A DNA stretch of 41,723 nt from IMG/VR virus record IMGVR_UViG_3300021560_000028, positions 1-41,723 of that record. One strand, 5' to 3'. This DNA is from a virus (taxonomy: Duplodnaviria > Caudoviricetes). Position numbers and translations under genes: made by a program. How positions within the stretch are numbered: the stretch's first letter is position 1; each line of letters starts with the position of its first letter. This document shows positions 208 through 39,076 of the stretch, piece by piece. The notes beneath the pieces are model-generated. The model saw only the letters and a program-made list of their open reading frames with translations. It was not told the origin of the DNA and ran no database searches.

Positions 208-242
208 CCAAGGAAATCCGCCGGTGGGCTGACAATGGCTAA
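204..242 (+). pseudogene. Orphaned original 5' end of thyX (MTKEIRRWAD-NG*), interrupted by the HNH gene
   Basis: ATG at 204 encodes MTKEIRRWAD, near-identical to the ThyX N-terminus MTGKEIRRYAD at 663. Confidence 0.7.
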
Positions 243-666
243 GACCAAAGCCCATACGAACTACAAGCCAGCCGAAAGGAATCTAGGACATTACCAACGA
301 ATGCAATGCGTAAAGAATCGCGGAAAAGCTAATGAGTATCTATGTGCCAAATGCGATAGGAAAGCCAAGGACTGGGCACACATACACGGCGAATCCGGCG
401 ACGATCCATGGGCCGACTTCGTACCGCTATGTAGGCGATGTCATATGCAGTATGACGGCCATAACCAGAAGGGAGGGAACTCATCAGAAGCCAGATCTGA
501 AAGAATGAAGGCGATCACAACAAACAACTGGAATGATCCAGAATACCGTCAACATATGTCTGATGCTCATTACGGACAAGAAATTTCGACCGAAACAAGA
601 GCTAAGATATCAGCGGCACTCAAAGGAAAGCCCTGGTCCGAGGCAAGAAGGAAGGCACAGAAATGA
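235..666 (+). CDS. HNH-type homing endonuclease with C-terminal NUMOD3-like DNA-binding motifs
   Basis: CAKC...WAHIHG...LCRRCH zinc/HNH core and C-terminal STETRAKISAALKGK motif. More AT-rich than thyX and flanked by a duplicated thyX start. Confidence 0.75.
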   Translation: MAKTKAHTNYKPAERNLGHYQRMQCVKNRGKANEYLCAKCDRKAKDWAHIHGESGDDPWADFVPLCRRCHMQYDGHNQKGGNSSEARSERMKAITTNNWNDPEYRQHMSDAHYGQEISTETRAKISAALKGKPWSEARRKAQK

Positions 667-2790: not shown

Positions 2791-2921
2791 CTAGACGTAC
2801 GTACGACTGGCGCGATATACTAGTCTCGGGTATCATCCTAGCACTACTACTACTGCTATTGGTACTGTCAATAGCTTTGTCCGAACCGCCATATCATATA
2901 TCCGGAGGTGATCTATGGTGA
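2787..2921 (+). CDS. Small single-pass membrane protein (44 aa)
   Basis: MTRRTYDWRDILVSGIILALLLLLLVLSIALSEPPYHISGGDLW*. Fills the gap exactly with overlaps at both ends. Confidence 0.6.
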   Translation: MTRRTYDWRDILVSGIILALLLLLLVLSIALSEPPYHISGGDLW

Positions 2922-3862
2922 AGAACAAGATACGCTACGTATCACTTCACCACTTACACCATTCGACCTTCAGTCACGGTGATGGCCACAAGCTACCAGC
3001 TATCCACGTAGCGCGGGCTGTAGAGCTAGGCTATACCGCGCAAGCCCTTACAGAGCATGGCGGTACGTCTAGTCACTTCCAGTTCGAGCAGGCCGCCCTG
3101 AAGCTAGGGCTGAAGCCGATATTTGGGCTAGAGGCGTACTGCGGGCCGGTAGGCGAAAACCGTAGCCAATGGAAGTATCACCTCACGATCCTCGCGGAGA
3201 ACGCAAATGGATACCGAAACCTCAACCGCCTTGTCACACAGTCTTGGCGAGATCATCACTACCATCCGACAGTTTCTGGACAGAATCTGGTCGACAATCA
3301 CGAGAATCTTGTCGTACTTTCAGGATGCACTGGTAGCATGCTCGCATGCGCTCTTGTCGGAGGCAAGGGGATCGCCGATCCCACGTCTAGAGACGGTTAT
3401 GGATGGGATGACGCACGACGCGTCATCCGCCGTTTTGCCTCTCTATTTGGGGCCAATTACTACCTCGAAGTCCAGCCCTTCTACGAGCTTGAAAAGACCT
3501 GCCGCATCAATCCAGCTTACGAACGTCTCAGCCGGGAGACTGGAGTTCCACTTGTCGCAACGTGTGATGTCCACTACCCCAGACCAGCAGATTCTGAGAT
3601 GCAGGCTATACTCCACGCAGTACACCGAAAGAACCAATCCATAGACGACGCACTACGCGCCTGGAACTATGACGTCCCTATGACGTTCCCCGAGTCCGAC
3701 AAGCAACTCGGCGAACGCCTGATGAAGACCGGCCTATCCCGCGCCGCAGCATGGGAGGCTATCCTCAATACTGAGCGCATAGCCGAGCAATGTACGGTAA
3801 CCCTGCCAAAGGCAGAACGACTTACCTACCCAATCAAAGACTCCGACTGGGAGCCATGGTGA
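2915..3862 (+). CDS. dnaE: DNA polymerase III alpha (DnaE) N-terminal PHP-domain subunit; contains CAC-TTA-CAC candidate bypass site
   Basis: GGAGG SD. Motifs SLHH(LH)HSTFS.GDG, ALTEHG, KPIFGLEAY, HLTILA.N..GYRNL, LSGC, YYLEVQP, VATCDVHY. Confidence 0.9.
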   Translation: MVKNKIRYVSLHHLHHSTFSHGDGHKLPAIHVARAVELGYTAQALTEHGGTSSHFQFEQAALKLGLKPIFGLEAYCGPVGENRSQWKYHLTILAENANGYRNLNRLVTQSWRDHHYHPTVSGQNLVDNHENLVVLSGCTGSMLACALVGGKGIADPTSRDGYGWDDARRVIRRFASLFGANYYLEVQPFYELEKTCRINPAYERLSRETGVPLVATCDVHYPRPADSEMQAILHAVHRKNQSIDDALRAWNYDVPMTFPESDKQLGERLMKTGLSRAAAWEAILNTERIAEQCTVTLPKAERLTYPIKDSDWEPW

Positions 3863-4038
3863 AGCAGGACATCTACATCAGTCATGTCGTCGGCCTCTGT
3901 GCGATATGCGGTTTCTACATCATCGATACCGGCTACAGTGACGAGATGGATCATGAATTTCTTTTCAATGAGCTTTCCCTATACGGCCGGAATGACTGGT
4001 TCTTTAACGCATTCCATGGAAGCTGGGAAATTATATGA
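3856..4038 (+). CDS. Small hypothetical protein (60 aa, CxxC) between the two dnaE halves
   Basis: ATG 3856 overlaps the PHP stop, and its TGA overlaps the dnaE catalytic ATG (ATGA). Confidence 0.55.
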   Translation: MVKQDIYISHVVGLCAICGFYIIDTGYSDEMDHEFLFNELSLYGRNDWFFNAFHGSWEII

Positions 4039-6527: not shown

Positions 6528-7139
6528 ATGACAACCTCAGTCACTATCGGGTACGTCCACAACGATCACGTCCACGCCGGGTTTATGCACTCGCTGGTGA
6601 ACCTCATCCGGTACATGAGTATCGACACCCTTGACTACTGGTCGAGCGCTAACATATCGACCGCGCGGAACAAACTAGTCGAGCAGTTCCTAGAGTCTGG
6701 TAACAAGTGGCTATATATGGCCGATACCGATACCGTCTTCAACCGGAATACGATCGAGCGCCTACTCAAGCGTAACGAGGCGATCATAGGCGGACTCGTT
6801 CATATCAATGACCTCCCGAAGTACCCGTCGATGTTCCGGCGTGAGCCTGATGACGAGAACGGGACGCCGGCATACCGGGCCATCACCGAGTATGAACAAG
6901 GCGAGGTTGTTGACGTGGACGCGACCGGCGCGGGCTGCCTCCTAGTCCACCGGCAGGTGTTCCTAGACATCCAGGAGAAGCTGCCCAATAAGGCCGCCCA
7001 GTGGTTCCAGGAGATCCCGATGGGCGAATATCTTGCCGGTGAGGATGTCACCTTCTGTATTCGAGCGATCAGCCTAGGATACAATATCTGCGTCGACACC
7101 TCGGTCAACATCGGCCACCTCAAGACTCACATCATCTAG
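6528..7139 (+). CDS. GT-A fold (family 2-like) glycosyltransferase
   Basis: ARNKLV, WLYMADTD (DxD), ATGAGCLLVHR, GEDVTFC, IGH motifs. Start may be 6516 instead. Confidence 0.8.
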   Translation: MTTSVTIGYVHNDHVHAGFMHSLVNLIRYMSIDTLDYWSSANISTARNKLVEQFLESGNKWLYMADTDTVFNRNTIERLLKRNEAIIGGLVHINDLPKYPSMFRREPDDENGTPAYRAITEYEQGEVVDVDATGAGCLLVHRQVFLDIQEKLPNKAAQWFQEIPMGEYLAGEDVTFCIRAISLGYNICVDTSVNIGHLKTHII

Positions 7140-11466: not shown

Positions 11467-14400
11467 TCATCTTCCCTTGGCCCGCATATTCTTCTCAAGT
11501 TTCTTGATACGCGCAGTAAGCTGATTGGTAAGGGTCTTGCCCGAGGACGTTGGATCAGTAGAGTTCCCTATTGTGGGGATAACATTCAGTATCGGACTTT
11601 GTGAAGGATCGGCAGTAAGCTGTACACTAGAAACAACATCAGTATACGATATGAGCGTCGGAGTCGTACGGACTTCGACAGTCACTATATCGCCTAGTAC
11701 ATAATCACGTCCATAAATACAGAACGGCGTATCGGAAGCGGTTACGCCCATGGTAGGCCCGAATGTACCGGAGAACAATTCATTTTGTGCCGTGGTAGTA
11801 AGAGTCTTAGCATCCGCATTCGAAGTGTCATCAACATACACCTCAGTCTTAGTCCATGGGGTGACGGCCGAATTAGTCTGTGACACGAACCTATTAACAC
11901 CTTGTACAAGAGCATCAGTACATGTTGGATCTGTCAAAGAGAAGTTGATGGATGTAAGGTTCCCGAGCTGTTCCGAGAAGTACGCAGTCTGCGACTTATC
12001 AACCGGCGTGAAGACGTCGAATGTAAGATTGGTGCCTGTTCTGGTAATCCTAAACCCCATACCTCCAGCAACATTCGTCGGGTAGGCTTGCGCGATAAGC
12101 GCGCGTATAACATCGAGCAGGCCAAGATCAACGCCCGACGTGAACTGAACACTATAGTTTACAGCCGGACCACGTCCCTGATCAGTAGCGATAACTAGTG
12201 ATGGATGTCTACGCGCAGACAATGCACCAGGTCCAGCATTCACCGAAACATAATGCTTGATAGCTGTCTCAAGCGGGACATTGACAACTATATCCTTATT
12301 CGATGGACGCTGATGTGCCCAGTCGCTAGTAGGATCTGGATAGCATATCCGGTTTGCGAGTATCTGAAGATAGTCACCACCGGTCAGCATTATAAATGGA
12401 CCGGAGTAACTACCTGATGGCCCAGATCCCGCGCCGGTCGAGCCAGGCATCGAATCGACGTACCCTGGCTGTTCACATTTGCCACCAAATTCAAACATGT
12501 TGCGCCAGTTAACTCTGACGATGAAGTCACCGCCGGTAGCGATTTTCCACAACCAGTCCGAGTACGGCGCTAGGATAGTCCATGTTCCAACCGCATTGTA
12601 GTAGAGCGTCGCGGTGACAGTCGCGAACTGGATCATACCTTGACTAACGAAGTTGGTGTTAAGTACATCGACCCATACCGTTTGATCAGGTGGCGCAGGC
12701 ACGCTCGTGAAAAGCTTAACTGAACAATTGTCAAAATAATATCCCCAGTTAGTCGGCATACCATTTGACATCACGTTAAACGATAGGTTCTGCGATATCG
12801 TTCCGGCGAGGGTGCCAGACATAGCCAAGTTATCTATAGCAGTCCATAGGCCATTAGGCGACGGTACCGATCCTATAACCGCGACCGTCGCGGATATAAG
12901 TACAGGAGCCCACGAATTAGAAACGCTCACTTTCATATCAACAGTATTAGAAGTAACACTGCCGCCAGGAGCCGTAGCGAGAAGCGAGTATAGTCCCTGC
13001 ATACCGTACGCAGACGCATACCCCTCAAAGTACGTAGTACAGGTAACCGAAATTGTATCGCTCGCACCAAGCGCCTTCGGGCTCAGGCAAGCGAATACGA
13101 ACTGCGACACGACATTGCCAGGAGCCGTATTTGACATCACGAGGGTATAAGCATTGCCCTGAGTATCGGTAACTGAGAATGAACCTGATGTAGCAACATT
13201 AGTCGACACGATATTAACTAGTGAAGAATCACCAGACGGTATAGTACCATACCCACTTACAATGGGCATATTCGAGAATGCATCAATACCGACATAGTAA
13301 GCAGATGAAGCCGCATTCTTCGTTCCGGTTACCGTAATGACTATCGTATGGCTACCTCTAGCCAGAACTGGAGATTCCCATACAATGAAGTTATTATGTA
13401 GAGTTGATGAATACGTATCAATAAGGACAGCAGTTCCGCCATCAATTGATATAGATCCTATACCTCTGTTCGTATCGACAGAGAACTGAACGTACAGACT
13501 ACCGCTCATAGGCATGTTGAAGTTAAGCGTAGCATAATTCCCCGTGATATTCGAGAAGTGCTGCGTACCACCATACCACGTCGCAGGCGGTGTCAAGTTC
13601 TGGCCGTTCTGAGTGTTGCCCCAATTACCAGTATAAACTATTGCAGCATTGAAGTCATCATATATCCAGTCCGGATTGATTACCATCGTACCGGTACGAT
13701 CAGCATAATACGCTACACCTAGTCCAGCATATACGCCCGCGTATCCACCAGTTCCCCCGGAACCGCTGCCTGGATTAAGGTGGGTGAACCCAACCGGAAC
13801 TACCTCAGCTTCAGTATCATTACCGCCTATCCATAGGACTGCGTGATTGCCAGTCCCTATGGTGACATTCGGGACCGTAGGCGTAGCACTCGTACCGGTA
13901 TCATCATATACCGTAGCTGTAGCCGTTAGGCCGATCATTGAAAAGACTTCAGACCAGCCATTAATCGCATACCCGGATGTGATAGTATACCAGTCATTGA
14001 TGGCGAACGTAACAGCAGCATTCGACTGCATCAGGAATACGCGCTGCCCAGTCGGAAGCGCAATGAATGCTATCTGTGAATACGCATTCCCGTGATTATC
14101 GGCAATGACTGGTGAACCACTTACCGCGCCGGAAGTACACACCATGATGTATACGTACCGGCTAGCAACTGCCTGCTGAATATTGAAATGCCCGGTAACG
14201 ACTACAGTCGTAGCACTAAACGTCATGGCACACCATGCAGCTGAACCGGAAGGTAGGGTCGCTGTCGTCGCGACACTGCCTGAACCAGTATTCGTCTGGA
14301 ACCCGACTGTGACTAGGCCAACACCCTGTCCTTGCGTATTACTCACAAAAGTTGTATTTGATCCAAATGCCGGAGTTCCGCCAGCACCACCGCTGTATAT

Positions 14401-16613: not shown

Positions 16614-19600
16614 TATGACCGCCTCCCCTGTCTTTGTAGAGCGCCGTTCCTCATCTCCATAAGCTTAAATGCCGTCTGAACATGACCCTCGATAACTGCG
16701 CCGGTCAGTCCGTCGAAGTGAGCGTGATACTGCGTACCACCCATACGATCAAGCTGATCCTGGGTGAATATAGCTTCTGGCTTACCGGTACGGTTCACTG
16801 CCATCGTTACGCCCGGAGGTAGCCATCCCCCAAGGTCATACCCTGACCCACCGCCAAGCTGTCCTCTACCGGGGCCTATCCCGACGCCGCGAGTATGTAC
16901 CGCATAGTTAAGCGCAGCAGCAATATTCGCAAGCGGATCGTAGATGTCCCATGATGTACCGGGAACGTGGAACGCCGCGAACGTAGTGCCAGTAGTCTGC
17001 ATAAGACCGCGCGACGGATTACCGGCCCTAGCATTAGAGTCCCATGTATTGACGATATTCGGATCGCCGCCCGACTCAGTTTGCATCTGACGTAGAACAA
17101 GATCTGTGTATGCCGAGGGGAGATGCGTTATAGCAAGCGCCTTCAACACAGTATTGCGCCACTGCTCTACGCCCGCGCCGACCTTGCCAGCTGACTTCCC
17201 GGTTATGAAGTTCCAGAAGCCGCCAAGAATATTAGCAGCCGCACCGAGACCGCCCTTCAGTGCCTTCTGCCCCCATCCTAGGGCGCTGCCAATAGCATTC
17301 ATGGCCGCCTTTGGGAGACCCTTTTCAGATAGCAAGCCCTTAGACACATACGATAGAATCGCATGTGGCCACGACCCGAAGATCTGCGCGATGAAGTGGC
17401 CGATCTTCTTGCCTTCGCCCATCATGCCGTGTATGATACCGGTGATAAGATTCGCGCCAATAGGATGCATCTTCTTCGCAGGCGACGAAATCCCGAACAC
17501 GCTCTTGATGCTTGTGAGGATTGGCATATAGACATTGTCATGGAACCACTGGTTGACGCTACTAGCACCCTTGAAGAAGTCAGATACGCCAGCAAGCAAT
17601 CCATTGACGATATCCTTGCCGGCACCAGTAAGCCAGGTCACAGCATTCGAGAACCAGTTACTGAAGTTCTGCGGTATCGTCTTGGTGAAGAAGTTCGAAA
17701 CAGTAGTCCAGGCCGTCTTGATGCCATTCCACATACCGGTTATGATATCAGAGCCGGTCTTCTCCAGCCAGTGAATCGCATCCCAGAACCAATTCGTAAA
17801 GTTCTGAGGTATCGTCTTGGTGAAGAATGGCACGATATCAGTATTCCAGATTGTGGTTACACCATTCCACAATCCAGTAATCAGGTCTTCGCCAGTTTTC
17901 TCAAGCCAGTGTATTGCGTCAAAGAACCAGTTATGGAAGTTCTGTGGAATAGTCTTTGTAAAGAACGGCTTCACATATCGGTTCCAGCCGTACGCTATCT
18001 TACCGCTCAATAGAGACATACCATGAACAGCAACGTTATAGGCCGTTTCGAACCCATGACCTATCATAACGCCTATGTTCGCAATATGTCCGGCCGCTGG
18101 CCCGAGCGCAAGCCACTTATTAAGTTCGCCAGGAACGCTAATGCCAGGCTTTACATTCGTTCCTGGATACGGAACCGCCGGACCAAGTATTGGCGCCTTG
18201 GCAGCTACCGGCCCAACGAACCCAGCAGGTACACCAGGTTGTCCTGGAGTCGTAGGCTGTACAATATTCCCAGATGTCAGGAAACTCATAGCTCCATGAA
18301 GTATGTCGTGAAGAACTCCACCACCAGGAATACCGCTAGCCGCTACATTAGACGGTACACTCGGGCCTATGAAGGTATGAGTCAGTACTGGACGAGCACC
18401 AGTTACCGGACCAACAAACGGAGTTGAGATCTTAGCAGGCGCACCAGCCGGAGGAGTGGACGTAGCCTTCATCAAACCATGCCACAAAGATGAACCTAGG
18501 TTGTTAAACCATTGATCAGACAGCGGTATCGCTCCACCAGCCCCGCCTCTACTTTGCGCAGCCTGCCCGGTCTTGACTACTCCATACCCGGGAATCAGCG
18601 TCCACTTGAGTATCGCCTCAAGCAATGGATGCTTCTCAATATACCCGGCAATTTTCGCTCCCCAGTTGACGATATCAATAGCAAGAACGACAGCCTTTGA
18701 TAGGAAGTTGATCATATCAGCAAACACTTGTGGATTTTTCGCAATCGTGTTCGCTAGATCATCAATTGCCTTAGCAAAGGATGCCATGTTACTAGCCAGA
18801 ACGGTAGTCATAGATTGTAGCATGAGCCCGAAAGCATTCGCCACATCAATGATCGCCTTCTGAACTCCAGGCTGCATAAGCGCCTTGATAAAGGCATCGG
18901 CAAATTGCTGGAACGCTGGAGCAATATCCTTCATAGCCTGAACGAAGGTCGGCGTCAGAGTCTTCATCAAGCTACCGGCGAAGTTGAGAATTTGAGTGAG
19001 AACCGGAACTAGGGGCGCTCCTGACTGCTTAAGGAATGACGAAAAATCCGCACCGAAATGAGCTTCAGGCTTAGCAAGCTTGCCACCCATCTGAGCGCCG
19101 ATAATCCCAAGGCCAAGGATACCGGTGCCCATAGTACCAATTATTATGCTACCAGCCGCCTGTAGGATAAACGGCAACACGGCGATGCCCGCAGCAACCA
19201 TAGCCGTAATAGCTGCAGGTGACGTGAGAAGTCCTGAGAGACCCATGCCAGCACTCTCGCCACCAGAGGCAACTTCCCCGGCTACTCCGCCAGCGCCACC
19301 GCCGCCACCGCCCCCGCCGAAGAACCCTGTGAATCTGTCAAAAAGACTCGAAAGGCTGCCAAAGATACCGGTACCCGCCGAGGTTGCGCCCGATAGGCTG
19401 TTCGCAGCATTCTCAAGACCCGATACATCCTTTGATATGGTAGAGAGTAGACCACCCTTCGTAGCGCCTTGTGGCCCAATCCCGCGCAGCTTATAGAGGA
19501 TGTCCAAAGCCTTTTGCGAGTCGTAGCTTATGTTGAGCGGCATGTCTTTGCCGGCTTCGAGCTTGAGCCTCTTCAGGTCAAGCATGATACGATCGATCTC

Positions 19601-19948
19601 GTGAGCCGCTTTTGTCGGATCTATCAGTTTTGAATCATAGATCTCCTTGATCCTGACGCGTATACCATCAAGTCTCTGATCGAGTTGCGTCGAGTCGGCG
19701 TCAAGCTGCGCTTTCGGTAGTGAATCAAGCGCAGCCTTTATACGCCTCTTGAATTCCTTGTCGAACGCACCTCCTGCTGAATCTCCTGACTTACCCATCT
19801 TGTCGGTGATTGCCTTGCCCATCTCCGTTCCGGCTTCATCGCCTATAGCCCGAGACGGCTCGACAATCTGCTGCCGCATCTTCTCATCCCAGCCTCTAGC
19901 GTCCGGCACGACGCCGACTGAAACTGATCCTACGACGATATCAGTCAT
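16613..19948 (-). CDS. Tape measure protein with C-terminal lytic transglycosylase (SLT) domain
   Basis: Long Ala/Gly-rich helical protein after the tail chaperones; QTESGGDP...GLMQ...DPLANIAAALNY. Confidence 0.92.
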   Translation of the reverse strand: MTDIVVGSVSVGVVPDARGWDEKMRQQIVEPSRAIGDEAGTEMGKAITDKMGKSGDSAGGAFDKEFKRRIKAALDSLPKAQLDADSTQLDQRLDGIRVRIKEIYDSKLIDPTKAAHEIDRIMLDLKRLKLEAGKDMPLNISYDSQKALDILYKLRGIGPQGATKGGLLSTISKDVSGLENAANSLSGATSAGTGIFGSLSSLFDRFTGFFGGGGGGGGAGGVAGEVASGGESAGMGLSGLLTSPAAITAMVAAGIAVLPFILQAAGSIIIGTMGTGILGLGIIGAQMGGKLAKPEAHFGADFSSFLKQSGAPLVPVLTQILNFAGSLMKTLTPTFVQAMKDIAPAFQQFADAFIKALMQPGVQKAIIDVANAFGLMLQSMTTVLASNMASFAKAIDDLANTIAKNPQVFADMINFLSKAVVLAIDIVNWGAKIAGYIEKHPLLEAILKWTLIPGYGVVKTGQAAQSRGGAGGAIPLSDQWFNNLGSSLWHGLMKATSTPPAGAPAKISTPFVGPVTGARPVLTHTFIGPSVPSNVAASGIPGGGVLHDILHGAMSFLTSGNIVQPTTPGQPGVPAGFVGPVAAKAPILGPAVPYPGTNVKPGISVPGELNKWLALGPAAGHIANIGVMIGHGFETAYNVAVHGMSLLSGKIAYGWNRYVKPFFTKTIPQNFHNWFFDAIHWLEKTGEDLITGLWNGVTTIWNTDIVPFFTKTIPQNFTNWFWDAIHWLEKTGSDIITGMWNGIKTAWTTVSNFFTKTIPQNFSNWFSNAVTWLTGAGKDIVNGLLAGVSDFFKGASSVNQWFHDNVYMPILTSIKSVFGISSPAKKMHPIGANLITGIIHGMMGEGKKIGHFIAQIFGSWPHAILSYVSKGLLSEKGLPKAAMNAIGSALGWGQKALKGGLGAAANILGGFWNFITGKSAGKVGAGVEQWRNTVLKALAITHLPSAYTDLVLRQMQTESGGDPNIVNTWDSNARAGNPSRGLMQTTGTTFAAFHVPGTSWDIYDPLANIAAALNYAVHTRGVGIGPGRGQLGGGSGYDLGGWLPPGVTMAVNRTGKPEAIFTQDQLDRMGGTQYHAHFDGLTGAVIEGHVQTAFKLMEMRNGALQRQGRRS
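17600..17975 (-). repeat. Three ~40-aa tandem repeats in the tape measure
   Basis: FFTKTIPQNFxNWFxxAxxWLxxxGxDxxxG occurs three times, about 120 nt apart. Boundaries approximate. Confidence 0.8.
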
Positions 19949-20764
19949 CGGGCACCTCCAGGAAGCTAGGGCTGTTCATCAGTTTGCGTATCTCGTTGTC
20001 ACTCATGTCCCTCATGCGCGGGTCGAGCGCCCGGACATCACTCATGCGCAAGATCTTTCGACCCCTACGCTTCGTACCACCAGGACGACGAATAGGCTCA
20101 GGCCGCCGTATGTTCCCAGACTTTGAGTTTACTGAAGCATACATCCAGCTCTGGTGCCTAATCTCATCAATCAGGGAAGCTAGGAGTGTCTCAACAGTAC
20201 TCCAGGGAGCCTGTGCTGGATCACCAGCCGACGCATCAAGCTGCTCTTCCGGCGTCCGATTCCGAATCGCAGTATTCAACGCACCCTCCGGCGGAAGAAA
20301 TTCGACTAGCACTAGCAGCTTACGCCACGAAAGTTCCGCGCCGAGACTAGCCAGAGCTATACCATAATAGCGCTGTAGATCTGCCTCTACCTCCTCCGGG
20401 AATTCTGTGGTGATCCAGAGCGCTTTCTGGATTTTCCCATGTTCATCCGAGACTGCCTACCGCACTCGTTGAACACTGCCTCGACCTGGTAGTTACGCAG
20501 GTCGGCTGCGACCCATGTCTGGAACTCCGCATCGTCATCGATGACCTCGCGAGCCCACGTGTCCCAGTCACCGGCCGCCGCCGCACGCATCGCGGTAGAT
20601 GACCAGCTCTTGGCATGGGACACGTGAACGATCTTGCCGTCAAGCTTGACCGTTGTCGGTTCGCCGACGACCTCCTTGCGCAGGATCTCGTCCATGAGGT
20701 CCAGGTCGATGTCGACGGAAACTTCTTCTGGGGTTACCGGTCCCAGTCCCAAGTCCTCACTCAT
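19941..20764 (-). CDS. Tail assembly chaperone, long (gpGT-like) form via -1 frameshift at GGGAAAA (20438-20432)
   Basis: ATG GGA AAA TCC. The -1 frame reads IQKALWITTEFPEEVEADLQRYYG... open into the 19941-20312 ORF. Confidence 0.88.
20387..20764 (-). CDS. Tail assembly chaperone, short (gpG-like) form
   Basis: Lies between the major tail and tape measure genes and ends just past the slippery site. Confidence 0.85.
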   Translation of the reverse strand: MSEDLGLGPVTPEEVSVDIDLDLMDEILRKEVVGEPTTVKLDGKIVHVSHAKSWSSTAMRAAAAGDWDTWAREVIDDDAEFQTWVAADLRNYQVEAVFNECGRQSRMNMGKSRKRSGSPQNSRRR

Positions 20765-21486
20765 CACGTGAAGTACGTCGTCATCGACTCGCCGTAGTTA
20801 ATCGTCCGCTGGACGACCGCGTTGGTGGTGGTCCCGATCGTGCCGGGGTAGAACGTAACCGTCATGTCTGTCATGACGATGTCGCCCTGCTGGACCTGGT
20901 CGTTGCCACGCGCGGTGACCTTCGCGAACGGCGCGTACAAGCGCTGTCGCTTCGCGCCGTCGATTGAGTCGAAGATGAATGAGTACCGGTTGTCGGCCGG
21001 TGGGTCCGGCAAGATGTACGTGACCGAGTTCGCCGGCAGGGCCGTGGTCGCGGTCGTGGGCGGCTTGAGCGGCGAGGACGTCACCGGGAAGACCGGTATG
21101 TCATCGTACAGGGAACGAACGTACGGATTGAGCGCCTCCAGGAAGGTAGCCTGAGCCGTCTTGACGCCGCCGGTAAGGATCGACCGCACCGGCGTCAGCA
21201 GCCCGGCTGCCGGGATGTCCTTGATGGTCTCGTCGAGCTTGAAGATGTAACCGGCTACGTCGGCCCATCCACAGCACTTGTAGACGCCGACACCGAGCGA
21301 GGATGGGTCCTCAAAGCCCGTCGGCGGCGATGCGTTGTTCGGCTGCCCGACCCAGATGACGACATCCCCGGCCGCGTAGAGCATGTCGGAGTTCTTGTAC
21401 GTGCCGGTGGAAGGGGTAGGCAAGCCTGCGAGCGGAACGGGAAGGTCATAGGCTTCTGCTGCTGAGTCTTGCTTTGTAGGTGACAT
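20764..21486 (-). CDS. Major tail protein
   Basis: Position, GAGGA SD, strongly GC3-biased codons, tube-like features (FLE, FDSIDG, TVTFYP). Confidence 0.82.
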   Translation of the reverse strand: MSPTKQDSAAEAYDLPVPLAGLPTPSTGTYKNSDMLYAAGDVVIWVGQPNNASPPTGFEDPSSLGVGVYKCCGWADVAGYIFKLDETIKDIPAAGLLTPVRSILTGGVKTAQATFLEALNPYVRSLYDDIPVFPVTSSPLKPPTTATTALPANSVTYILPDPPADNRYSFIFDSIDGAKRQRLYAPFAKVTARGNDQVQQGDIVMTDMTVTFYPGTIGTTTNAVVQRTINYGESMTTYFT

Positions 21487-30591: not shown

Positions 30592-31321
30592 TTCTACCAC
30601 TCCAGTACTTTTCCCAGGCCGCTACTGCGTCCTTGCCACTCTTTCCTGCCGTCTCTCGCGACCATTCAGAAGCAAGAGCAAGATTAGCCGAATGCTGGCC
30701 CTGAAATACCGCGCGAGCCAGGCACTGGCAATTATCGTGCGCATGGAATACAATCGTCCCTGCCTTATGTACACCACCGCTAGCAGCAAGCCCAGAACAA
30801 TAGCTACAAGTCCTAGGCTCGACAATACGTTCCCAACCCAATGCGCCGTTGTCATTCGCGACTGCATTTGTTACCGTATCCCGCCCACCATTCAGCACTA
30901 CGCGAATGCTGTTGCCTATAAGATAACGCATAGCCATCTTAGATGCGATGGCCGGTTCGTAACCATTCCCAACGAAGCTGAGGAATTTCTGTAGCCCCGT
31001 ATTCCGAGTTAGTACCGAGAGGTAATCAGGGTTTAGGTACGCTCCTGGCACAGACGTGCCATAATACCCGGCAACTGAACGCGATAGGCCGTAGTACTGC
31101 GCAGCATCCGCAGCAGACATCCCGTGATTCAGGTCTACGATGCCCTGTATGATTGGTTCGAGCGTCTTCCATGTAGTGGCGAAGTTATTAGGATCAACAA
31201 TAGAAGCCCACATACCAGCAATCGATCGCGACACTCCTTGCGCAATCATATTCTGGTTGTTCCTGTATCGCACAAACAGAACACCGCCTGTTTGCGCCGA
31301 CGTACTAGGAAGCCCGTTCAC
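30485..31321 (-). CDS. MuF-like minor capsid / head morphogenesis protein
   Basis: GGRDT, WERIV..TCSYC, HAHDNCQC; GTGA overlap with the portal stop. Confidence 0.78.
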   Translation of the reverse strand: MNGLPSTSAQTGGVLFVRYRNNQNMIAQGVSRSIAGMWASIVDPNNFATTWKTLEPIIQGIVDLNHGMSAADAAQYYGLSRSVAGYYGTSVPGAYLNPDYLSVLTRNTGLQKFLSFVGNGYEPAIASKMAMRYLIGNSIRVVLNGGRDTVTNAVANDNGALGWERIVEPRTCSYCSGLAASGGVHKAGTIVFHAHDNCQCLARAVFQGQHSANLALASEWSRETAGKSGKDAVAAWEKYWSGRNGSSGNGGSGTEAQATPTGQGAGNAAVANQQVQLA

Positions 31322-32886
31322 GGTCCAGCCCCAATAGCAGGCGGCGCACCAGGAACAGCGCCGGGAGTTGGACCAGGCGGGAGCTGTCCGCCCGGAGGAA
31401 TGGGAGCGCCAGGAGGAGCACCAGGAGGCATAGCACCGGCACCAGCCGCAGCTGCCTGCTGTTGCGCTATCATCTGTTGTACGATCTGCTGAGCTTGCTC
31501 CCTCTGGTATGCCAGCTGCCACGACGCGACGTCATCTGACGTAGCTCCAGGCACTCGCGACCACAACTCCTCAGCAGGCACGCCAAGCATCTGCGTCAGC
31601 TTGCCAAGCGCATCAATCGTCGCCGCGAAGGACCGTGCTGACGTGTCGCGCCACAGAATTGTGCCGAACAGGTCATTCCATCCGGCAGTGTTGCCCTGAG
31701 CTAGACACGTAAGTCTGAAGACGTTTCGCCAGGGATCTGTCTGTCCCGCTTGCAGTTCTTCAATCTTCCGGTCGAGTCCGTCGCGAGCAGCTGCGAGCGC
31801 TTCTGCTGACATATTTGCGACCTGTCCCAAAAGATGATACGGCGGAATCTGTGAGACAGTTGACATATGCCGTATTCCATCTTCTCGCACGAGAGAGTAT
31901 GGCTGGAGTGCGGTTTCACCAAATTCTCCAAACTTCGTTGTCGGATCGTCCGACGCCCATACGCGGTCAACGCCCGGCCGGAACGGCATAGTTTCCCGGC
32001 CATCCTCATCGACCGGCGACATACCGGAGACATACCGCTGCCTGAACGCAGCGAACTGCGTCGAGATCATCAGGTTGAACGTGTCGAAGTTGATCTGGTC
32101 CTGGATCGGCATAAGCGGCTCGATCTCGCCTATACAATCCTCTTCGGCATCCAGGTCAACTTCATACAGGAACCGCACTACCGGGCATATACCCATCTCA
32201 TGCGCCGAGATTACCTGCTGCCCGTTGAGCAGAACATCACCTGCTTCCGCAAGATGGATGTTGGCCTGAGACGGATCGACAGCGGCATCGCCGGTTAGTA
32301 TGTACCGGTTCGCTTCATCATAAACGTACACCAACATGCGTGCTGTGCCATTAGGCATGTTGACGACGTTCACCTCGATTGCGAATTGCGGCCACTCATC
32401 ATCTATATCGTCAGCATAGAATGCCGTCATCCTACGCGGGCTAACCGGCCGGATAACCGGCACGTTAGCAGGCTGCTCTTCGTCCGAGGTAAGCTGTCCA
32501 GGCAACACAACGGTGTACGCAGAACCGTACTTGATGACCGCGCGATGAACGCCGTGCTGCCGAGACACCATCCGGTTCGCGCGGAACGCATCCCATTCCG
32601 GAGTAGGCTTCTGCGGAGATGCCATCTCATTAGCCGTCGTGCCGGTCGGCTTGTATCCGTCCACATGGAGGTTCTCTGAGATAACAGAGATGATGAGAGG
32701 CAAAAAGTTCCGCCGTGCCTTCTTGGCTATCCACCGGTACTCAGCATTAACACCGCGCGGGATGTAGGGTGGGTCTTGCCGGCCACGTACGTAGTTCCCG
32801 ATCCGGCGCAGCCTATTCTGTTCAGCCTCTCGCGACGCAAGAGCCTTTTGCGTCGTCTCCACTACCTGATTCGTCCCGATGATCAT
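31318..32886 (-). CDS. Portal protein (SPP1 gp6-like)
   Basis: YVRG, NFLPLI, CPVVRF, GEIEPL..QD.IN, AFRQR, NMSAEAL motifs; follows TerL. Confidence 0.92.
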   Translation of the reverse strand: MIIGTNQVVETTQKALASREAEQNRLRRIGNYVRGRQDPPYIPRGVNAEYRWIAKKARRNFLPLIISVISENLHVDGYKPTGTTANEMASPQKPTPEWDAFRANRMVSRQHGVHRAVIKYGSAYTVVLPGQLTSDEEQPANVPVIRPVSPRRMTAFYADDIDDEWPQFAIEVNVVNMPNGTARMLVYVYDEANRYILTGDAAVDPSQANIHLAEAGDVLLNGQQVISAHEMGICPVVRFLYEVDLDAEEDCIGEIEPLMPIQDQINFDTFNLMISTQFAAFRQRYVSGMSPVDEDGRETMPFRPGVDRVWASDDPTTKFGEFGETALQPYSLVREDGIRHMSTVSQIPPYHLLGQVANMSAEALAAARDGLDRKIEELQAGQTDPWRNVFRLTCLAQGNTAGWNDLFGTILWRDTSARSFAATIDALGKLTQMLGVPAEELWSRVPGATSDDVASWQLAYQREQAQQIVQQMIAQQQAAAAGAGAMPPGAPPGAPIPPGGQLPPGPTPGAVPGAPPAIGAGP

Positions 32887-34551
32887 GAAAAACTCCATAC
32901 TCTGCGCTTGCCGCTCTTGGCTGCCATAGCCCGGCGTTCCTTGTACGCTTTAGATCCGAGTACAAGCCGACGAGCATGCCTCGCGCCAATCATACAAACA
33001 CAGGCGTCGATTTTCTTTGGCGACTTAGGTGCTTCCTTACCAATACTTATGCCCCAGCGGTTCGGCCGACGCCGAGCATTAACAACGTGCCGTCCTAGCG
33101 CCGAGTCTCCATCATGCCAGAATACTGGATCACCCGGAGACTCGATTTCGCTAAGCACCATCTCGCATGCCTGCGTAAACTCCGCAGTATGCGAGCGCAT
33201 ATCCCATGCTACAGGCTGTGGATCACGCCCAGAAGGGACAGCCCATATATCAAGGCCCTCTTCAAACCACTCACGCCACGTAATCTTCGTTGACTCTTCC
33301 CACTCATTGACGTCCGCGAAGAATGCGCAAACATTCCACTTCTCTTGTGCCGACCGTATAGCAAAGTGGACTTCATCAACCGGTACATTACGCGTACCCA
33401 GCGGCTCCCAAACACCAAGAGTGAAAACGAAACCAGTTTCCACATGACATCCAACCAGTGCAGTAGCGTCATCAGTCCTCGATCCATCGAAGAACATAGT
33501 AATATCGTCGCCGTCATTGATCCTGAATTCTGGATCTGACAGTCGTGCCCACTTCTGCTGCGTGGTCCACGCATCCTCGGCCGACTCCGGCCAGTTTAGG
33601 TAGAATCGCTTGGACACATCTAGCGGCGTACGCGGCGAGAGGATACGATTCTCAACGATATCATCAGTATCAGCCCAGAAAGCATCGCCATACGCGAATT
33701 CAACCGCCTTGCGTATGGATGATACGTCATCGAAATCAACATCAGGAGGGGCCATTCGCGAATCATACAGGATCTTACCCTTCCCTTTGAGCTTGCCCTC
33801 TTCTTGCGACACCCACGCATCGAATGTAGTCTCGGCTACCGTCCCCGCGCCCGGCTCCCAGGCATTTGACGTCTCGATAATCCGCGAGCCGGACTTACCA
33901 ACATTACGGTCCATGACTTCGGCAAGCGCTATTCCTCCGTTGGTGGCAGTGAACGACTCGGTCTGATCAAGTATCGCAAAGGTGACAAGAGCACCCTCTT
34001 CGGTAGTTGGCGAACTCGTGATGACCATGAGTTGTCCTCCGCCTGGCACATGGAATATTGTCTTGCCAGCTTCGACATCATAGTCTCGCAGGATTCGCGA
34101 TTTCTTGGGCAGTAGCGCCCGCACCATCCGCATTGTGTTGACGTTGGCCTGGTCATGTGACGTTGCGCCAATCTGTACGAGCGGCATCGACACCGCTTTC
34201 CCAACGACGCCGCCCGGCGCGTCGGAGTCCCATCGCCAGAAGCGGACAGGCGCGAGTAGCTCGATCATCGCCAACACCGCGGCAAACGGAGACTTCCCGG
34301 CACCTTTTGGGTACCGGCGCACTCCGTGATAGAACATCCAGCGCCCCTCGGGCGTTAGCGCATACCACCAAAGTATGAATCGCACTTGCGATTCCGTGAA
34401 CTCCCACCGGTTCCCGGCGTCCGGCCCGTCTGGCTGCTTGAGGTAAAAGGTACTTGGATGCCCAGTGAATCGCTTCCCACCCAAGCGTAAGCTCAGGCAA
34501 GCCTTCAGGAAGCGTAACCAGTCTGTCACGTGGCGCTACCAATGTACTCAT
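32883..34551 (-). CDS. terL: Terminase large subunit; needs recoding (7-nt bypass or +1 shift) at TAC CTT TTA C CTC, 34452-34440
   Basis: 5' frame MSTLVAPRDRL..LTLGWEAIHWASKYL joins the 3' frame KQPDG...PKGAGKS (Walker A), FDGS..DD, KIDA. GAGGTG SD before ATG 34551. Confidence 0.9.
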
Positions 34552-34573
34552 TCAATCACCACCTCTCGCAAAC

Positions 34574-35398
34574 CTACTTGGTAGCTACATACGTAGCGAG
34601 TTGCTTCATCACGGCCGCACTCGGCTTAGCGACCTGCGCCCTGCCGCCCTTGGCCGGATGAGCAGTCAGGCCCTTCGGCGGCTTTGGTGCTGCGATACGC
34701 CGCTGTGCCGCAACCTTGTGAGCTGCCTTCCGTACTGCGGTCTTCTTCCTTGCCGGTGCCTTCTTCTTGGCCTTAGCCTTAGCCTTGGCCGCCGCCTTCT
34801 TGTGGCTGTGCAGGTATATCCCGAGCCTAGCCAGCCCCATGCCTAGCCGGGCAGCCCCGCCGAGCGCACGCCCCGCCCCAAGCAGGCCGCGTCCCAGTCC
34901 GCCGCGACGGCGCTGTTGCCTACGCTGCTTGTCCCGCTTCTTGCGTTCCTCCTCGCGCTTCTTGTCGCTGGCCGCGCGTTCCTCACGCCTTGCCTTGTCG
35001 CGCTCAGCGAAGTCCTTGTTGCGTTGCTCCCGGTCAGCCGCCCTGGACGCATCCCGCGCGGCGTCACGCCGCCTGGTCTCCTCGGTGATGCTCTGATGTA
35101 GGGCTTCCTTCCGGGCCTGTAGCTGCTCCTGCCTAGCGACACCATACTGTGCCATCGCCTTGTGGAGTTCTTCTCGCGAGATCCCAGCTGACCTAGCTTC
35201 GCGGCCCGCAGTCTCGACTGCCATCCTGTCCTGTAGTATCTGATGACGCCGAAGAGCAGTCTTCTCATCGCGCGTAATCGTGTCCGCCGCGCCGCGTTCG
35301 ATTTTGCGAATGGCATTGCGGACGTGCTTGTGGTGTTCGCCGCCAAAGATCCAGCGCCCGTGGAACCCCCGGATCTCAGCCGGGTTGAAGTCAACCAT
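34574..35398 (-). CDS. Highly basic Arg/Lys/Ala-rich protein with N-terminal FNPxExR..GRW motif
   Basis: Lies between terS and terL; coiled-coil middle and histone-like KA-rich tail. Confidence 0.65.
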   Translation of the reverse strand: MVDFNPAEIRGFHGRWIFGGEHHKHVRNAIRKIERGAADTITRDEKTALRRHQILQDRMAVETAGREARSAGISREELHKAMAQYGVARQEQLQARKEALHQSITEETRRRDAARDASRAADREQRNKDFAERDKARREERAASDKKREEERKKRDKQRRQQRRRGGLGRGLLGAGRALGGAARLGMGLARLGIYLHSHKKAAAKAKAKAKKKAPARKKTAVRKAAHKVAAQRRIAAPKPPKGLTAHPAKGGRAQVAKPSAAVMKQLATYVATK

Positions 35399-35846
35399 CG
35401 TCCGTCCCCGTCCTCACTATGCCGAGACGTCCGTGCCACTTGATCACGGCATCGTCAGCCGCTTCCTCATCCTGATCAGTGACATCCTGATCAGTGAGTT
35501 CGATTCTGTTCTTCTTGCGGTCGATGACCGTCACGCCGAGCCGAGCCGACAGCCGCTCGAATACCGGCAGTAGGTTCGCCCGGTACGTACGCAGGAAGAT
35601 GTCATAGATCTGCGCCGCCATGACGGCCGTAGCCCAGTCGGAAGCCTCATAGAACTCCGACTGGCCGCTAAGCGCTAGCGCCCGGAACCAGGACTGTGCC
35701 TGCGGATGCCAGTTCGGATTCGCCTCTGGGATCGGGATGTCCTTGCGCTTAGACTCCCCGGTCGACACAGCCAGGAAGCGCGGGTCATCACCGCCACCAG
35801 TACCCGCGCCCGTACGATTCTCAGGCTTCTTCTTTGGAGCAGGCAT
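35391..35846 (-). CDS. terS: Terminase small subunit
   Basis: PEANPNWHP.A..WF..L..SGQ..FYEASDWA...LG.T..DR...RIEL actinophage TerS pattern. Confidence 0.85.
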   Translation of the reverse strand: MPAPKKKPENRTGAGTGGGDDPRFLAVSTGESKRKDIPIPEANPNWHPQAQSWFRALALSGQSEFYEASDWATAVMAAQIYDIFLRTYRANLLPVFERLSARLGVTVIDRKKNRIELTDQDVTDQDEEAADDAVIKWHGRLGIVRTGTDDG

Positions 35847-36794: not shown

Positions 36795-36898
36795 TCTAGG
36801 CGATAGGGTCCGGCACCGCCCCCTAGGCTATATCTTCTATATATATATATATAAATTCGATATAGAGGGGGAGGCGGTGCCCGGGTCTATCGCCTAGA
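36795..36898. other. Long imperfect inverted repeat around a (TA)8 tract; candidate replication origin
   Basis: TCTAGGCGATAG..GGCACCGCC..CTATATC / GATATAG..GGCGGTGCC..CTATCGCCTAGA, immediately after the helicase stop. Confidence 0.6.
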
Positions 36899-38069
36899 TC
36901 CGAGGACTTTGTTTTGAGCCGCTTTTTTCGACGGTCCATTCCCAGTAATCGATACCCTTTCCGGCCTTTTTATAGACTGCTTTTTTCTCGATTCCAAGCT
37001 TATCCACGGCCTTATTCAAAGTAGCCTCATTGGTACTAGCTCCAGCCTCTCTTAGCTGGTTTATTATGTCCTCTTTCTTCCATGTTTTCTGCACCTTAAA
37101 TATCGCCTGAAGCGCGTCGATAAGGTCGACTAGCGCGCCTGACATCTTCCTGGCGGGCTTCCTGTTGATTATCTCGGAAGCATCCTTGTCAGTTGTGCCT
37201 AGGAACATGATTGTGCCGGCTGTAATTTCCTGTTCTTCATCAACTAGGATCTCTTCAATCCTGTAGGCAATAGACGGCCATGACCGTCCTAGGTTGTTCT
37301 TTTGCTTCGAGATTACGCCTATCCCATCCTCATCCATTGCCAGGTATATGACGGCTCGGGAGACGTTCCGGAACTCTTGTGATCCAGACATTCGCTCCAT
37401 GGCGTCCGCGGCATTGTTCTTGTTGAAGTGTACGTTCCCGATTATGACACAGTTCTGCCGTCGTGCGATAGACTGTAGCTTCATCAGGATGTCTCGTACA
37501 TGTTGCCCATGATTCGTGTCACGGGCTAGGTCTATCGCCCCGACTATCGAGTCGAAGAACACCCATGAGGCATCGTTCTTGTCGATAGCTGCTTCTAGCT
37601 CGCCGTAATCTTTTGGCAAGCTGATGATCTCGCCGTCCGGAGTCTCTTGTGTAATAACTTCAAGACCGCCTATCATATCGAGATCCGCCCCGGCCGCGAC
37701 AAGACGTGGTATGATGGTCCGCTCCCAGTCATCCTCCGAGGCAGCTATGATACAGAACTGAGGCTTTCCATACCAGTACCCATCTAGTTCGCCTAGCGTA
37801 AGCTGAGCTATAAGGCCAAGATTGAACGTACTCTTCCCCGCTTCGCCATGTCCTGCTGTTAGGGTTAGCTCGCCTATCGGGATTCGCTCGTGTCTGCCAT
37901 TAGCCCATCCCCAATGGACTTTCTTCATTGTATAGTCGCTTGCGAGAGTCACCTTCCCGACGCGATGTCCGTTGCTGGCAGAATTGACATCGCTTTGCCA
38001 ATTGCTATCGACGTACGTGACGCCGCCACGTCGTAGTGGCCGGTTCCCGTTGTCACTGTTGTTACTCAT
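36894..38069 (-). CDS. AAA_25 / RepA-like replicative helicase
   Basis: Walker A GHGEAGKST, SEDD...IPRL.AAGAD, Walker B VFFDS, HFNK, GS, K.NL. ATGA overlap with primase. Confidence 0.85.
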   Translation of the reverse strand: MSNNSDNGNRPLRRGGVTYVDSNWQSDVNSASNGHRVGKVTLASDYTMKKVHWGWANGRHERIPIGELTLTAGHGEAGKSTFNLGLIAQLTLGELDGYWYGKPQFCIIAASEDDWERTIIPRLVAAGADLDMIGGLEVITQETPDGEIISLPKDYGELEAAIDKNDASWVFFDSIVGAIDLARDTNHGQHVRDILMKLQSIARRQNCVIIGNVHFNKNNAADAMERMSGSQEFRNVSRAVIYLAMDEDGIGVISKQKNNLGRSWPSIAYRIEEILVDEEQEITAGTIMFLGTTDKDASEIINRKPARKMSGALVDLIDALQAIFKVQKTWKKEDIINQLREAGASTNEATLNKAVDKLGIEKKAVYKKAGKGIDYWEWTVEKSGSKQSPRI

Positions 38070-39076
38070 GATGTTCTCCGCCATGGTGACACGAACTTCG
38101 AGCACTCGTCACCCTTGGCTTGCGGAAGGGCAGCCGCTTTGGCCATTGCGCTGTTGACAGCGCCCTTCCATTCCGAACGTAGGTTTCGCCTCCTCCCGCT
38201 GTTCATGAAGGCATCTTCGCAGACCCCAAGAGCGTAGTCAAGTCCCTTATGTCCCTCGGCCGCGTTAGTACATAGGAACATCGCCGTCGCGACAATCGTG
38301 TCGTGTAGTCCGCCGAGAACTGCCGCTGCCCGTATCTTGCCTGCCTCTATTTCAGAAGCATTCTTCATGTAGTAACACATCGCCCCTCCTGATACCTTCC
38401 CATACCATGCGACAACTTCAGCTTCCTGTGCCGCACCTTTCACGACATACTCGCGCGGGGATAGTAGGTACTTACCCCATTCAGGCGGTAGCCATGGCAA
38501 ATCTGTCGGGCGCGGTTTCCCTGCTTCACGATCGCCGTACCACCACCGGTAAATCCGCCCAGTTGAGTTATGTACTGACGGTTCTACTGTCGCGAACCTA
38601 TGGTGGAACTGAGCTATCTCAACTCCAGACCCGACTCCAAGATCAGTAATCCACACCCACTCATCTCGGCGCGGAGCATAGTACAGGTAGATTCCCGACA
38701 TGCCATCATCGCGCGAGGTAGAGCGCCAGGTCTGAGGCAATATCCCTAGCCTAGACTGTAGGTTCCATATCGTTCTGTCGCCACCCCGGTTTTCGTATGC
38801 ATCGACATCAATTCCTATGATATCCCATGGCAGCCGAATCCCTATATTAGCGGTCGGAAATTCGGTGATCAATTCCGCTAGGCGTATGTCGTCTGGGTCA
38901 ACTCCGTTGTGTCCGGTCACGCCTTTTGCCAAGGGTGCTTTCGTGCCCTGCCGGGTAACCGGAATTGTACCAGTCCAGCCACGCTCGCGATAGATCCGAG
39001 CGGCATCACGGAATGGGAAATGCTTCTCTCCGCGTAGGTCTTTACTTTTCCCGCCGGACGCGGTAGACTCGTTCAT
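38066..39076 (-). CDS. Bifunctional DNA primase/polymerase (Prim-Pol)
   Basis: A..Y..RGW..IP...KAP, NIGIRL...IGIDVD, STSR, PSVH..TG..Y.W, LPWLP.EW. Confidence 0.85.
   Translation of the reverse strand: MNESTASGGKSKDLRGEKHFPFRDAARIYRERGWTGTIPVTRQGTKAPLAKGVTGHNGVDPDDIRLAELITEFPTANIGIRLPWDIIGIDVDAYENRGGDRTIWNLQSRLGILPQTWRSTSRDDGMSGIYLYYAPRRDEWVWITDLGVGSGVEIAQFHHRFATVEPSVHNSTGRIYRWWYGDREAGKPRPTDLPWLPPEWGKYLLSPREYVVKGAAQEAEVVAWYGKVSGGAMCYYMKNASEIEAGKIRAAAVLGGLHDTIVATAMFLCTNAAEGHKGLDYALGVCEDAFMNSGRRRNLRSEWKGAVNSAMAKAAALPQAKGDECSKFVSPWRRTS

Follow-up and report, generated by a model that had tools for sequence, protein, structure and literature searches.

A TTA-led insert of seven nucleotides splits the terminase gene of a soil phage and is probably crossed by translational bypassing

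The gene for the terminase large subunit (terL) of an uncultured tailed soil phage is interrupted after its 35th codon by seven nucleotides that open with TTA, a codon that the phage otherwise avoids, and we consider it likely that a full-length terminase of 553 residues is made by a short translational bypass over these 7 nt. The insert leaves the two parts of the gene in two different reading frames, and inserts of 6–9 nt of one and the same design stand at five sites in four genes of this phage and its relatives. The window, i.e., the whole stretch of DNA analyzed (41.7 kb; 41,723 nucleotides), has a G+C content of 56% and holds genes for terminase, portal, head, tail, and lysis functions and for a DnaE-type polymerase. 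The minus strand carries terL together with the genes for the terminase small subunit (35391..35846; Pfam PF25673, E 7e-23) and the portal protein (31318..32898; PHROG phrog_104, E 7e-100). On the same strand, a tail assembly chaperone pair precedes the tape measure gene (19941-20767), and primase- and helicase-like parts fall in two overlapping ORFs of one PHROG polymerase/primase family (36894-39076), a split also seen in the related loci L102 and L103. On the plus strand, an ORF at 2218-2790 ends in TTA TGA (2782-2790), as does its orthologue in genome G004, which is probably a by-product of an ATGA overlap with the next gene. A further relative, L159 (G009), has genes for a TET-associated glycosyltransferase, a methyltransferase, a dCMP deaminase, and a short-chain reductase, a set that would suggest modified DNA in this phage family.

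At the terL break, the minus strand reads AAG TAC CTT TTA C CTC AAG CAG CCA GAC. The 5′ segment (34447..34551) starts at an ATG at 34551, behind a Shine-Dalgarno-like GAGAGGTGGTGA at 34556..34567, and runs for 35 codons (MSTLVAPRDRL...WASKYL) to the putative take-off codon CTT (Leu; 34447..34449), which is found in all four carriers of such an insert but in only 8 of 56 intact copies. It is followed by the TTA (34444..34446) that would sit in the A site, a single C (34443), and the putative landing codon CTC (34442-34440), so that the coding gap delimited by contigs, carriers, and homologues is TTA C CTC (34440..34446). The body of the gene (32883..34439) has 518 codons and a stop, encodes the ATPase and nuclease domains (PHROG phrog_9, E 2e-57), and is shifted to the +1 frame with respect to the 5′ segment; a Leu-to-Leu join gives 35 + 518 = 553 residues. 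If TTA were decoded instead, the frame opened by the ATG would close after 132 residues (34153..34551), yielding a dead-end product with no PHROG match; its tail is not conserved among carriers, and the other carriers stop at other lengths. The initial annotation, which had described a 7-nt insert centered on TTA, two frames, a 553-residue join, and a 132-residue dead end, was exact on all of these points.

Both parts of the gene look as if they are under purifying selection. The body is 88% identical to that of the intact homologue P0002, and the 5′ segment holds the invariant T-L-G together with at least nine near-invariant residues of the family. Between the window and its sister phage, pN/pS is 0.09 for the 5′ segment and 0.125 for the body, and the values of 0.04–0.14 and 0.11–0.23 obtained for the terL halves match the range of intact pairs, a measure that is blind to recent inactivation.

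The codon that opens the insert is absent from the bodies of the long genes. TTA makes up 0 of 9,370 codons in the 24 long ORFs of the window when the first 50 codons are trimmed, and in a stricter ORF set none was seen in the gene bodies against about 60 expected. For comparison, the observed and expected numbers are 0 and 87 in Streptomyces phage Jay2Jay, 26 and 24 in Corynebacterium phage P1201, and 4/9, 7/16, 1/6, and 3/2 in four other actinophages. Judged by codon usage, this avoidance fits a Streptomyces-like host in which the tRNA that reads UUA is scarce. No tRNA genes were found in the window or in 35 loci, and hence neither a phage tRNA for UUA nor a suppressor.

As far as contigs show, the insert is confirmed as real and is not an assembly slip. 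Single contigs from runs X1, X2, and X3 (depths 50, 11, and 10) span the site without a gap and with the insert unchanged, where X1 may be the source of the window, contigs drop rare variants, and a further run, X4, has no coverage of the site. The insert-bearing phage is present in three runs from three studies with no other allele listed; contig L105 is the same phage as the window (99.99%), and the database proteins P0122 and P0123 of the same cluster, one of them from a variant strain, open with the same out-of-frame lead. The motif W-x3-Y..[QH]P[DN]G occurs in 97 of 119 terminase homologues, the other 22 being truncated or variant, and in all 97 exactly two residues separate Y from [QH]P[DN]G. 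The expectation that homologues would read Y-x-x-QPDG without an additional YL is therefore borne out, with extra residues in 0 of 97, and the loop that follows the junction is invariant in length in 100 of 100 homologues. In the structural model of an intact relative, the site falls at the end of a predicted helix formed by residues 25–35, followed by a bridge residue (pLDDT >90 there; mean of 90 for the model).

Other phages, too, have terL interrupted at this codon, each time with a pair of Leu codons. L101 reads TAC CTT TTA GC CTC CGG and L103 reads TAT CTT TTA GC CTC AAG, in both cases with an insert of 8 nt and a shift to the +2 frame, and L102 (G002, 6756-6764) reads TAC CTT TGA CTT CGC, with 6 nt and an in-frame stop codon; L102 is identical to L104, and the TGA version rests on one contig. 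The terL regions of these three loci are 67–78% identical to the window in DNA, and the landing codon is CTC or CTT in all four carriers. Among 60 distinct junction contexts, 4 have an insert and 56 do not, a ratio that overstates the frequency of carriers, since L101 was found with an insert-targeted pattern. A second pattern scan returned five loci, namely three known carriers and two intact false matches, and among the 10 proteins matched in a protein set there were no dead-end N-terminal stubs beyond the known ones, two of the 10 being HNH fusions. Carriers are scattered: the sister phage of the window, 89% identical, is intact, and on a quick tree the carriers need four changes, of which at least three are forced by well-supported branches. 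Within the nuclease domain of terL, L033 has an 8-nt deletion (L033:3034-3050) without TTA, likely a broken copy or an assembly error.

Beyond the terL insert, the window has one other clearly internal in-frame TTA, at codon 14 of the PHP-domain gene of DnaE (2915..3862, plus strand; Pfam PF02811, E 5e-30). Here, alignment with relatives points to a second candidate hop, CAC TTA CAC (2951..2959), of 6 nt and in frame, which turns HHHS into HHLHHS within the HxH motif, an element of the PHP domain with a metal-binding role. The two extra codons are absent from 16 of 18 aligned genomes; the same motif is interrupted as CAT TTA CAT in G004 and as CAC TTA CAC in G006. The insert at 2951-2959 is present in runs X1 and X2. 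In run X3, a near-identical contig has 2858-2962, i.e., the start of DnaE with the insert, swapped for 93 other letters, with 13 more differences directly upstream, which looks like a short conversion tract. In the window, DnaE is encoded in two pieces, a PHP gene and a catalytic gene separated by a small ORF (2915-6284, plus strand), and in G012, G013, and G015 it is a single frame of 1,068 residues. A different DnaE position, the EHG site, is interrupted in frame in G008 (GGT-TTA-CTC-GGC, 18529-18540, plus strand) and out of frame in G021 (GGC-TTA-C-GGT, 11559-11568, minus strand) and G032 (GGA-TTA-T-GGC); L206 is also among the relatives listed with further TTA-led gaps. The remaining two positions lie in the major capsid gene of G031 (ATT-TTA-C-ATC, 18230-18240, minus strand) and in a gene of G008 (GGA-TTA-GGA, 49694-49702, plus strand) that matches the nameless family PHROG phrog_1981 and that we take, from its DPG motif, to be RuvC-like.

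Across all sites, the take-off and landing codons are synonymous at 12 of 13, with L134 as the 13th, against a background of 0.078 per site, the 12 representing five positions in four genes and not twelve independent events; 7 of the 12 pairs have unlike third bases. In a survey of 29 contigs (1.03 Mb), all five internal frame breaks backed by at least 14 genomes are TTA-first and have the form codon-TTA-(C or GC)-synonymous codon, three of them in terL, one in DnaE (G021), and one in the capsid gene (G031); frame-break rows from G006 and G027 (3 genomes each) and one row from L134 were set aside as gene boundaries. TTA is held by 5 of 47 small in-frame insertions, and these five are the only ones with a flank identity of at least 0.8. 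In-frame stop rows other than that of G002 were taken, from the printed context, as shadow frames or gene boundaries, and most of 60 TTA rows listed precede true starts or sit in shadow frames. Three cases depart from the hop rule: L134 (G020), where two extra T at the 5′ end of DnaE give TCT TT ACG, with a shifted frame and no synonymous landing codon; the L033 deletion, which lacks TTA; and the pair GGA/GGC of G032, whose two codons are presumably read by different Gly tRNAs. The DnaE site of L134 adjoins an HNH-like ORF that starts MRYVSL.

On the mechanism that we favor, UUA would go unread in the A site and hold up the ribosome while peptidyl-tRNA-Leu sits on CUU. The tRNA would then leave its wobble pair with CUU, slide over 7 nt, and pair again, now fully, on CUC, and reading would resume at AAG to give the junction peptide KYLKQPDG. 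A 7-nt hop from CUU to CUC at a hungry UUA had been put forward from the window sequence alone, and it is now the best reading, with added support from versions of 6, 7, and 8 nt, a second site, and the avoidance of TTA. The strongest argument for a hop over a slip is that three frame outcomes at one codon are all mended by one Leu-to-Leu hop and by no single slip. Matched flanks can also come for free if an insert began as a duplication. No internal Shine-Dalgarno sequence was found within 25 nt upstream of any of the four terL take-off codons (the best match being 2 nt), and none of eight folds gave a stimulatory hairpin better than shuffled sequences (z from −1.36 to +1.28). The hop would thus rest on a hungry codon and a short distance alone, which leaves its efficiency unexplained.

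The alternative named at the outset is a +1 frameshift of the prfB kind, from CUU to UUU, which would give a terminase of 555 residues containing KYLYLKQ and would require a +2 slip in the 8-nt carriers and readthrough in L102. For the window taken alone it is workable: ribosomes are known to slip where CUU precedes a U and a slowly read codon, a shift by +1 or by +2 leads to TTT in either case at those terL sites that have TTA, and the predicted helix end might tolerate two extra residues. It loses ground once carriers and homologues are considered, since it calls for three different events at one site, leaves the conserved landing codon without explanation, and adds residues seen at the junction of 0 of 97 homologues. 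At G021 and G032 it is impossible or poor, as tRNA-Gly would land on GCU or GAU, and no Shine-Dalgarno sequence directly precedes the shift site. In phiHau3, moreover, a +1-frame stop placed in the gap left recoding undiminished (PMC10732093). We regard such a slip as quite unlikely. An independent start in the body frame had been named as what would speak against a bypass; it could be the GTG at 34529, from which the frame is open (548 residues) and where databases place the start (P0001, P0121), or an ATG giving a 484-residue form. The 29-residue lead from the GTG matches no homologue, has two TTA codons, and runs into stops in L001, L102, and L103; in L101 a stop stands five codons ahead of the junction; and either start would drop invariant N-terminal residues, leaving this explanation with hardly any credibility.

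That terL has simply been broken, in a defective phage or in a lineage packaged by the terminase of a helper, would suit the sporadic distribution of the inserts on the tree, and the window covers only about 64% of a genome and recent damage would be invisible to pN/pS. Against this stand the insert-bearing phage found in three runs of three studies along with variant strains, four lineages broken at one codon with every insert ending on a Leu codon, the intact state of the other head and tail genes, and the lack of a second terL in the window, where one was looked for; recent breakage is very improbable. Even less can be said for a correction at the RNA or DNA level, be it polymerase slippage on the run of four T, micro-splicing, or excision between the 5-nt direct repeats TACCT that flank the insert of the window. 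Slippage would usually call for a run longer than four T, the DnaE and capsid sites do not have such a run in common, 6–9 nt could not hold a self-splicing intron, contigs of three runs show neither joint nor gap at the site, and the opening of every insert with an in-frame TTA or TGA would go unexplained. We assign this possibility next to no weight.

As to why such gaps exist, the neighborhood of terL points to nucleases. An HNH gene directly precedes terL in two of four carriers, L101 and L103, whereas all 56 intact loci lack it (Fisher p 0.003, or 0.004 without five intact loci that have <700 nt upstream). In L103, the HNH ORF (L103:7745-8296, P0133) begins with a copy of terL codons 1–28 and is followed by a rebuilt terL start, so the insertion point lies about five codons from the gap; P0135 is another HNH endonuclease ORF that opens with the first 28 terminase residues and is followed by a rebuilt start. 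The link at DnaE is weaker, with a nuclease ORF beside 3 of 6 interrupted genes as against 2 of 19 intact ones (p 0.07, using a profile seeded on carriers); the nuclease ORFs before DnaE likewise begin MRYV (G004) and MRYVSL (G020). No nuclease lies beside either site of the window or at terL of L102. In the window, the short spacer before terL (34552..34575, minus strand) contains AGGTTTGC..AGGTG, a sequence similar to the HNH gene 3′ ends in L101 and L103, and AG[AG]TTTGC occurs in 3 of 60 upstream regions, namely the 22-nt spacer of the window, L101, and L103, a comparison made post hoc. It is a weak hint that the spacer is possibly the remnant of an HNH gene. Elsewhere in the window, a free-standing HNH-like ORF with a NUMOD3-like tail (235-666, plus strand) precedes the thymidylate synthase gene and has kin among the nuclease genes that flank DnaE in related phages. 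By analogy, we lean towards nuclease immunity as the origin of the inserts: an HNH nuclease of the homing type, one that inserts itself at the 5′ end of terL, would find its target spoiled by the gap while the protein stayed unchanged, and in the window the gap would have outlasted the nuclease.

The suggestion that the insert is a programmed switch on DNA packaging found no support. Inserts of the same kind also occur in polymerase, capsid, and RuvC-like genes and co-occur with HNH genes, one of them has TGA in place of TTA, and no integrase was found in the family. Because the L102 insert uses TGA, the bldA tRNA could not control it. Nuclease immunity and a selected developmental switch are not mutually exclusive, but the latter is no better than a tentative idea, and coupling to host development through the bldA tRNA would be a consequence, if anything. 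No match to tyrosine integrases or serine recombinases (PF00589, PF07508) turned up in 14 contigs, of which 6 reach a completeness of 90% or more; the window itself is about 64% complete. The insert pattern had 0 matches in bacterial genomes and no close prophage was found, a terminase protein scan of these genomes returning only relatives of 47–52% identity. Among terminases of cultured origin, identity does not exceed 50%, and the nearest come from other actinobacteria; the endolysin and polymerase match those of cultured phages at 30% and 46%. A broader and still more doubtful picture is that of an apparently virulent soil actinophage family with mobile micro-gaps of 6–9 bases, spread by HNH nucleases and independent of any stimulatory RNA structure, in which the two gaps of the window, in polymerase and in terminase, would gate replication and packaging by the UUA tRNA. 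Were it true, both processes would run only while the host is without charged UUA tRNA and would be shut off at sporulation, the phage would be parked in spores without an integrase, and the TGA of L102 would be a natural in-frame stop-hop.

One terL codon offers a natural series of gaps, 6, 7, or 8 bases long and opened by UUA or UGA, to which the same family adds His, Gly, and Ile versions. The series makes it possible to test the range and efficiency of hops that lack a hairpin or Shine-Dalgarno sequence, and to tell a switch from a shield against nucleases. It also has a practical side, in that gene callers give wrong starts to essential genes of these phages or cut them (P0001, P0121, P0026, P0056). 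To our knowledge, very few genes with natural bypassing are on record: T4 gene 60 and its kin, the byps of yeast mitochondria, and three Streptomyces terminase genes. In the literature within reach, from which most subscription papers are missing, nothing was found on the codon-35 site of terL, on such gaps in the genes for DnaE or the capsid protein, or on stop-hops that occur naturally and in frame.

Among known recoding sites, that of prfB (CUU UGA C) shares with the window a P-site CUU, a following U, and an A-site codon that is read slowly. The window differs in having no Shine-Dalgarno sequence 3 nt upstream and a sense codon, UUA, in the A site, and its relatives need other frames. For a mycobacteriophage tape-measure gene with an HNH insertion, bypass has been raised only as one possibility (PMC4351075). 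The CTT TGA CTT of L102, which occurs in a relative and not in the window, is a candidate natural in-frame stop-hop. It would resemble the synthetic stop-hops described in a 2016 review (PMC5009743), with nine bases for one residue, but would be natural and lies in an essential gene; the review knows no natural in-frame stop hop. In T4 gene 60, the gap is proposed to block nicking by MobA and outlasts the nuclease (bioRxiv 10.1101/2022.08.31.505936, Manning and Atkins). In both systems the take-off and landing codons match and flank an A-site codon that is decoded poorly, and in the present family an HNH gene likewise adjoins the gap in some carriers, is lost in others, and has its insertion point nearby. 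The T4 gap, however, measures 50 nt and has a stop codon, whereas the gaps here measure 6–9 nt and their usual trigger is the sense codon UUA; the take-off stem-loop and the Shine-Dalgarno sequence within the gap are missing here, and genes, hosts, and nuclease families are others.

The closest known system is the terminase bypass of phiHau3, traced to Smith et al. 2013 as cited in PMC10732093. In that paper, Antonov et al. 2023 report three UUA-split terminase genes among 100, with UUA-led bypass in phiHau3 (two 10-nt gaps), the StrepC.1 prophage, and an S. catenulae prophage (7-nt gap); the full-length product was shown in Streptomyces, the junction peptide was detected by mass spectrometry in E. 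coli with UAA replacing UUA, and an internal Shine-Dalgarno sequence and RNA structure were proposed as stimulators for phiHau3. The phiHau3 gaps, as we read them from GenBank, are GGC-TTA-CTC-C-GGT and TCT-TTA-ACG-G-TCC. The terminases belong to homologous families (35–41% identity to P0002), and both systems have a TTA-first gap, a synonymous NNY landing codon, flanks that are contiguous in homologues, and avoidance of TTA elsewhere. In contrast, the phiHau3 gaps follow KGWG and EGARS, whereas the gap described here follows codon 35, ahead of the ATPase motifs, with Leu as the take-off residue; it has HNH nuclease neighbors, natural versions of 6, 7, and 8 nt including one with TGA, and counterparts in DnaE, capsid, and RuvC-like genes, and lacks a detectable internal Shine-Dalgarno sequence or strong hairpin. 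As no integrase was found in the family of the window, the lysis-lysogeny logic of phiHau3 would not carry over, and given that two features proposed for phiHau3 are lacking, the window would work like phiHau3 without being a plain member of its group. This kind of bypass has already been published for phiHau3; what our analysis adds, going by the literature within reach, are the terL site itself and the genes beyond terminase.
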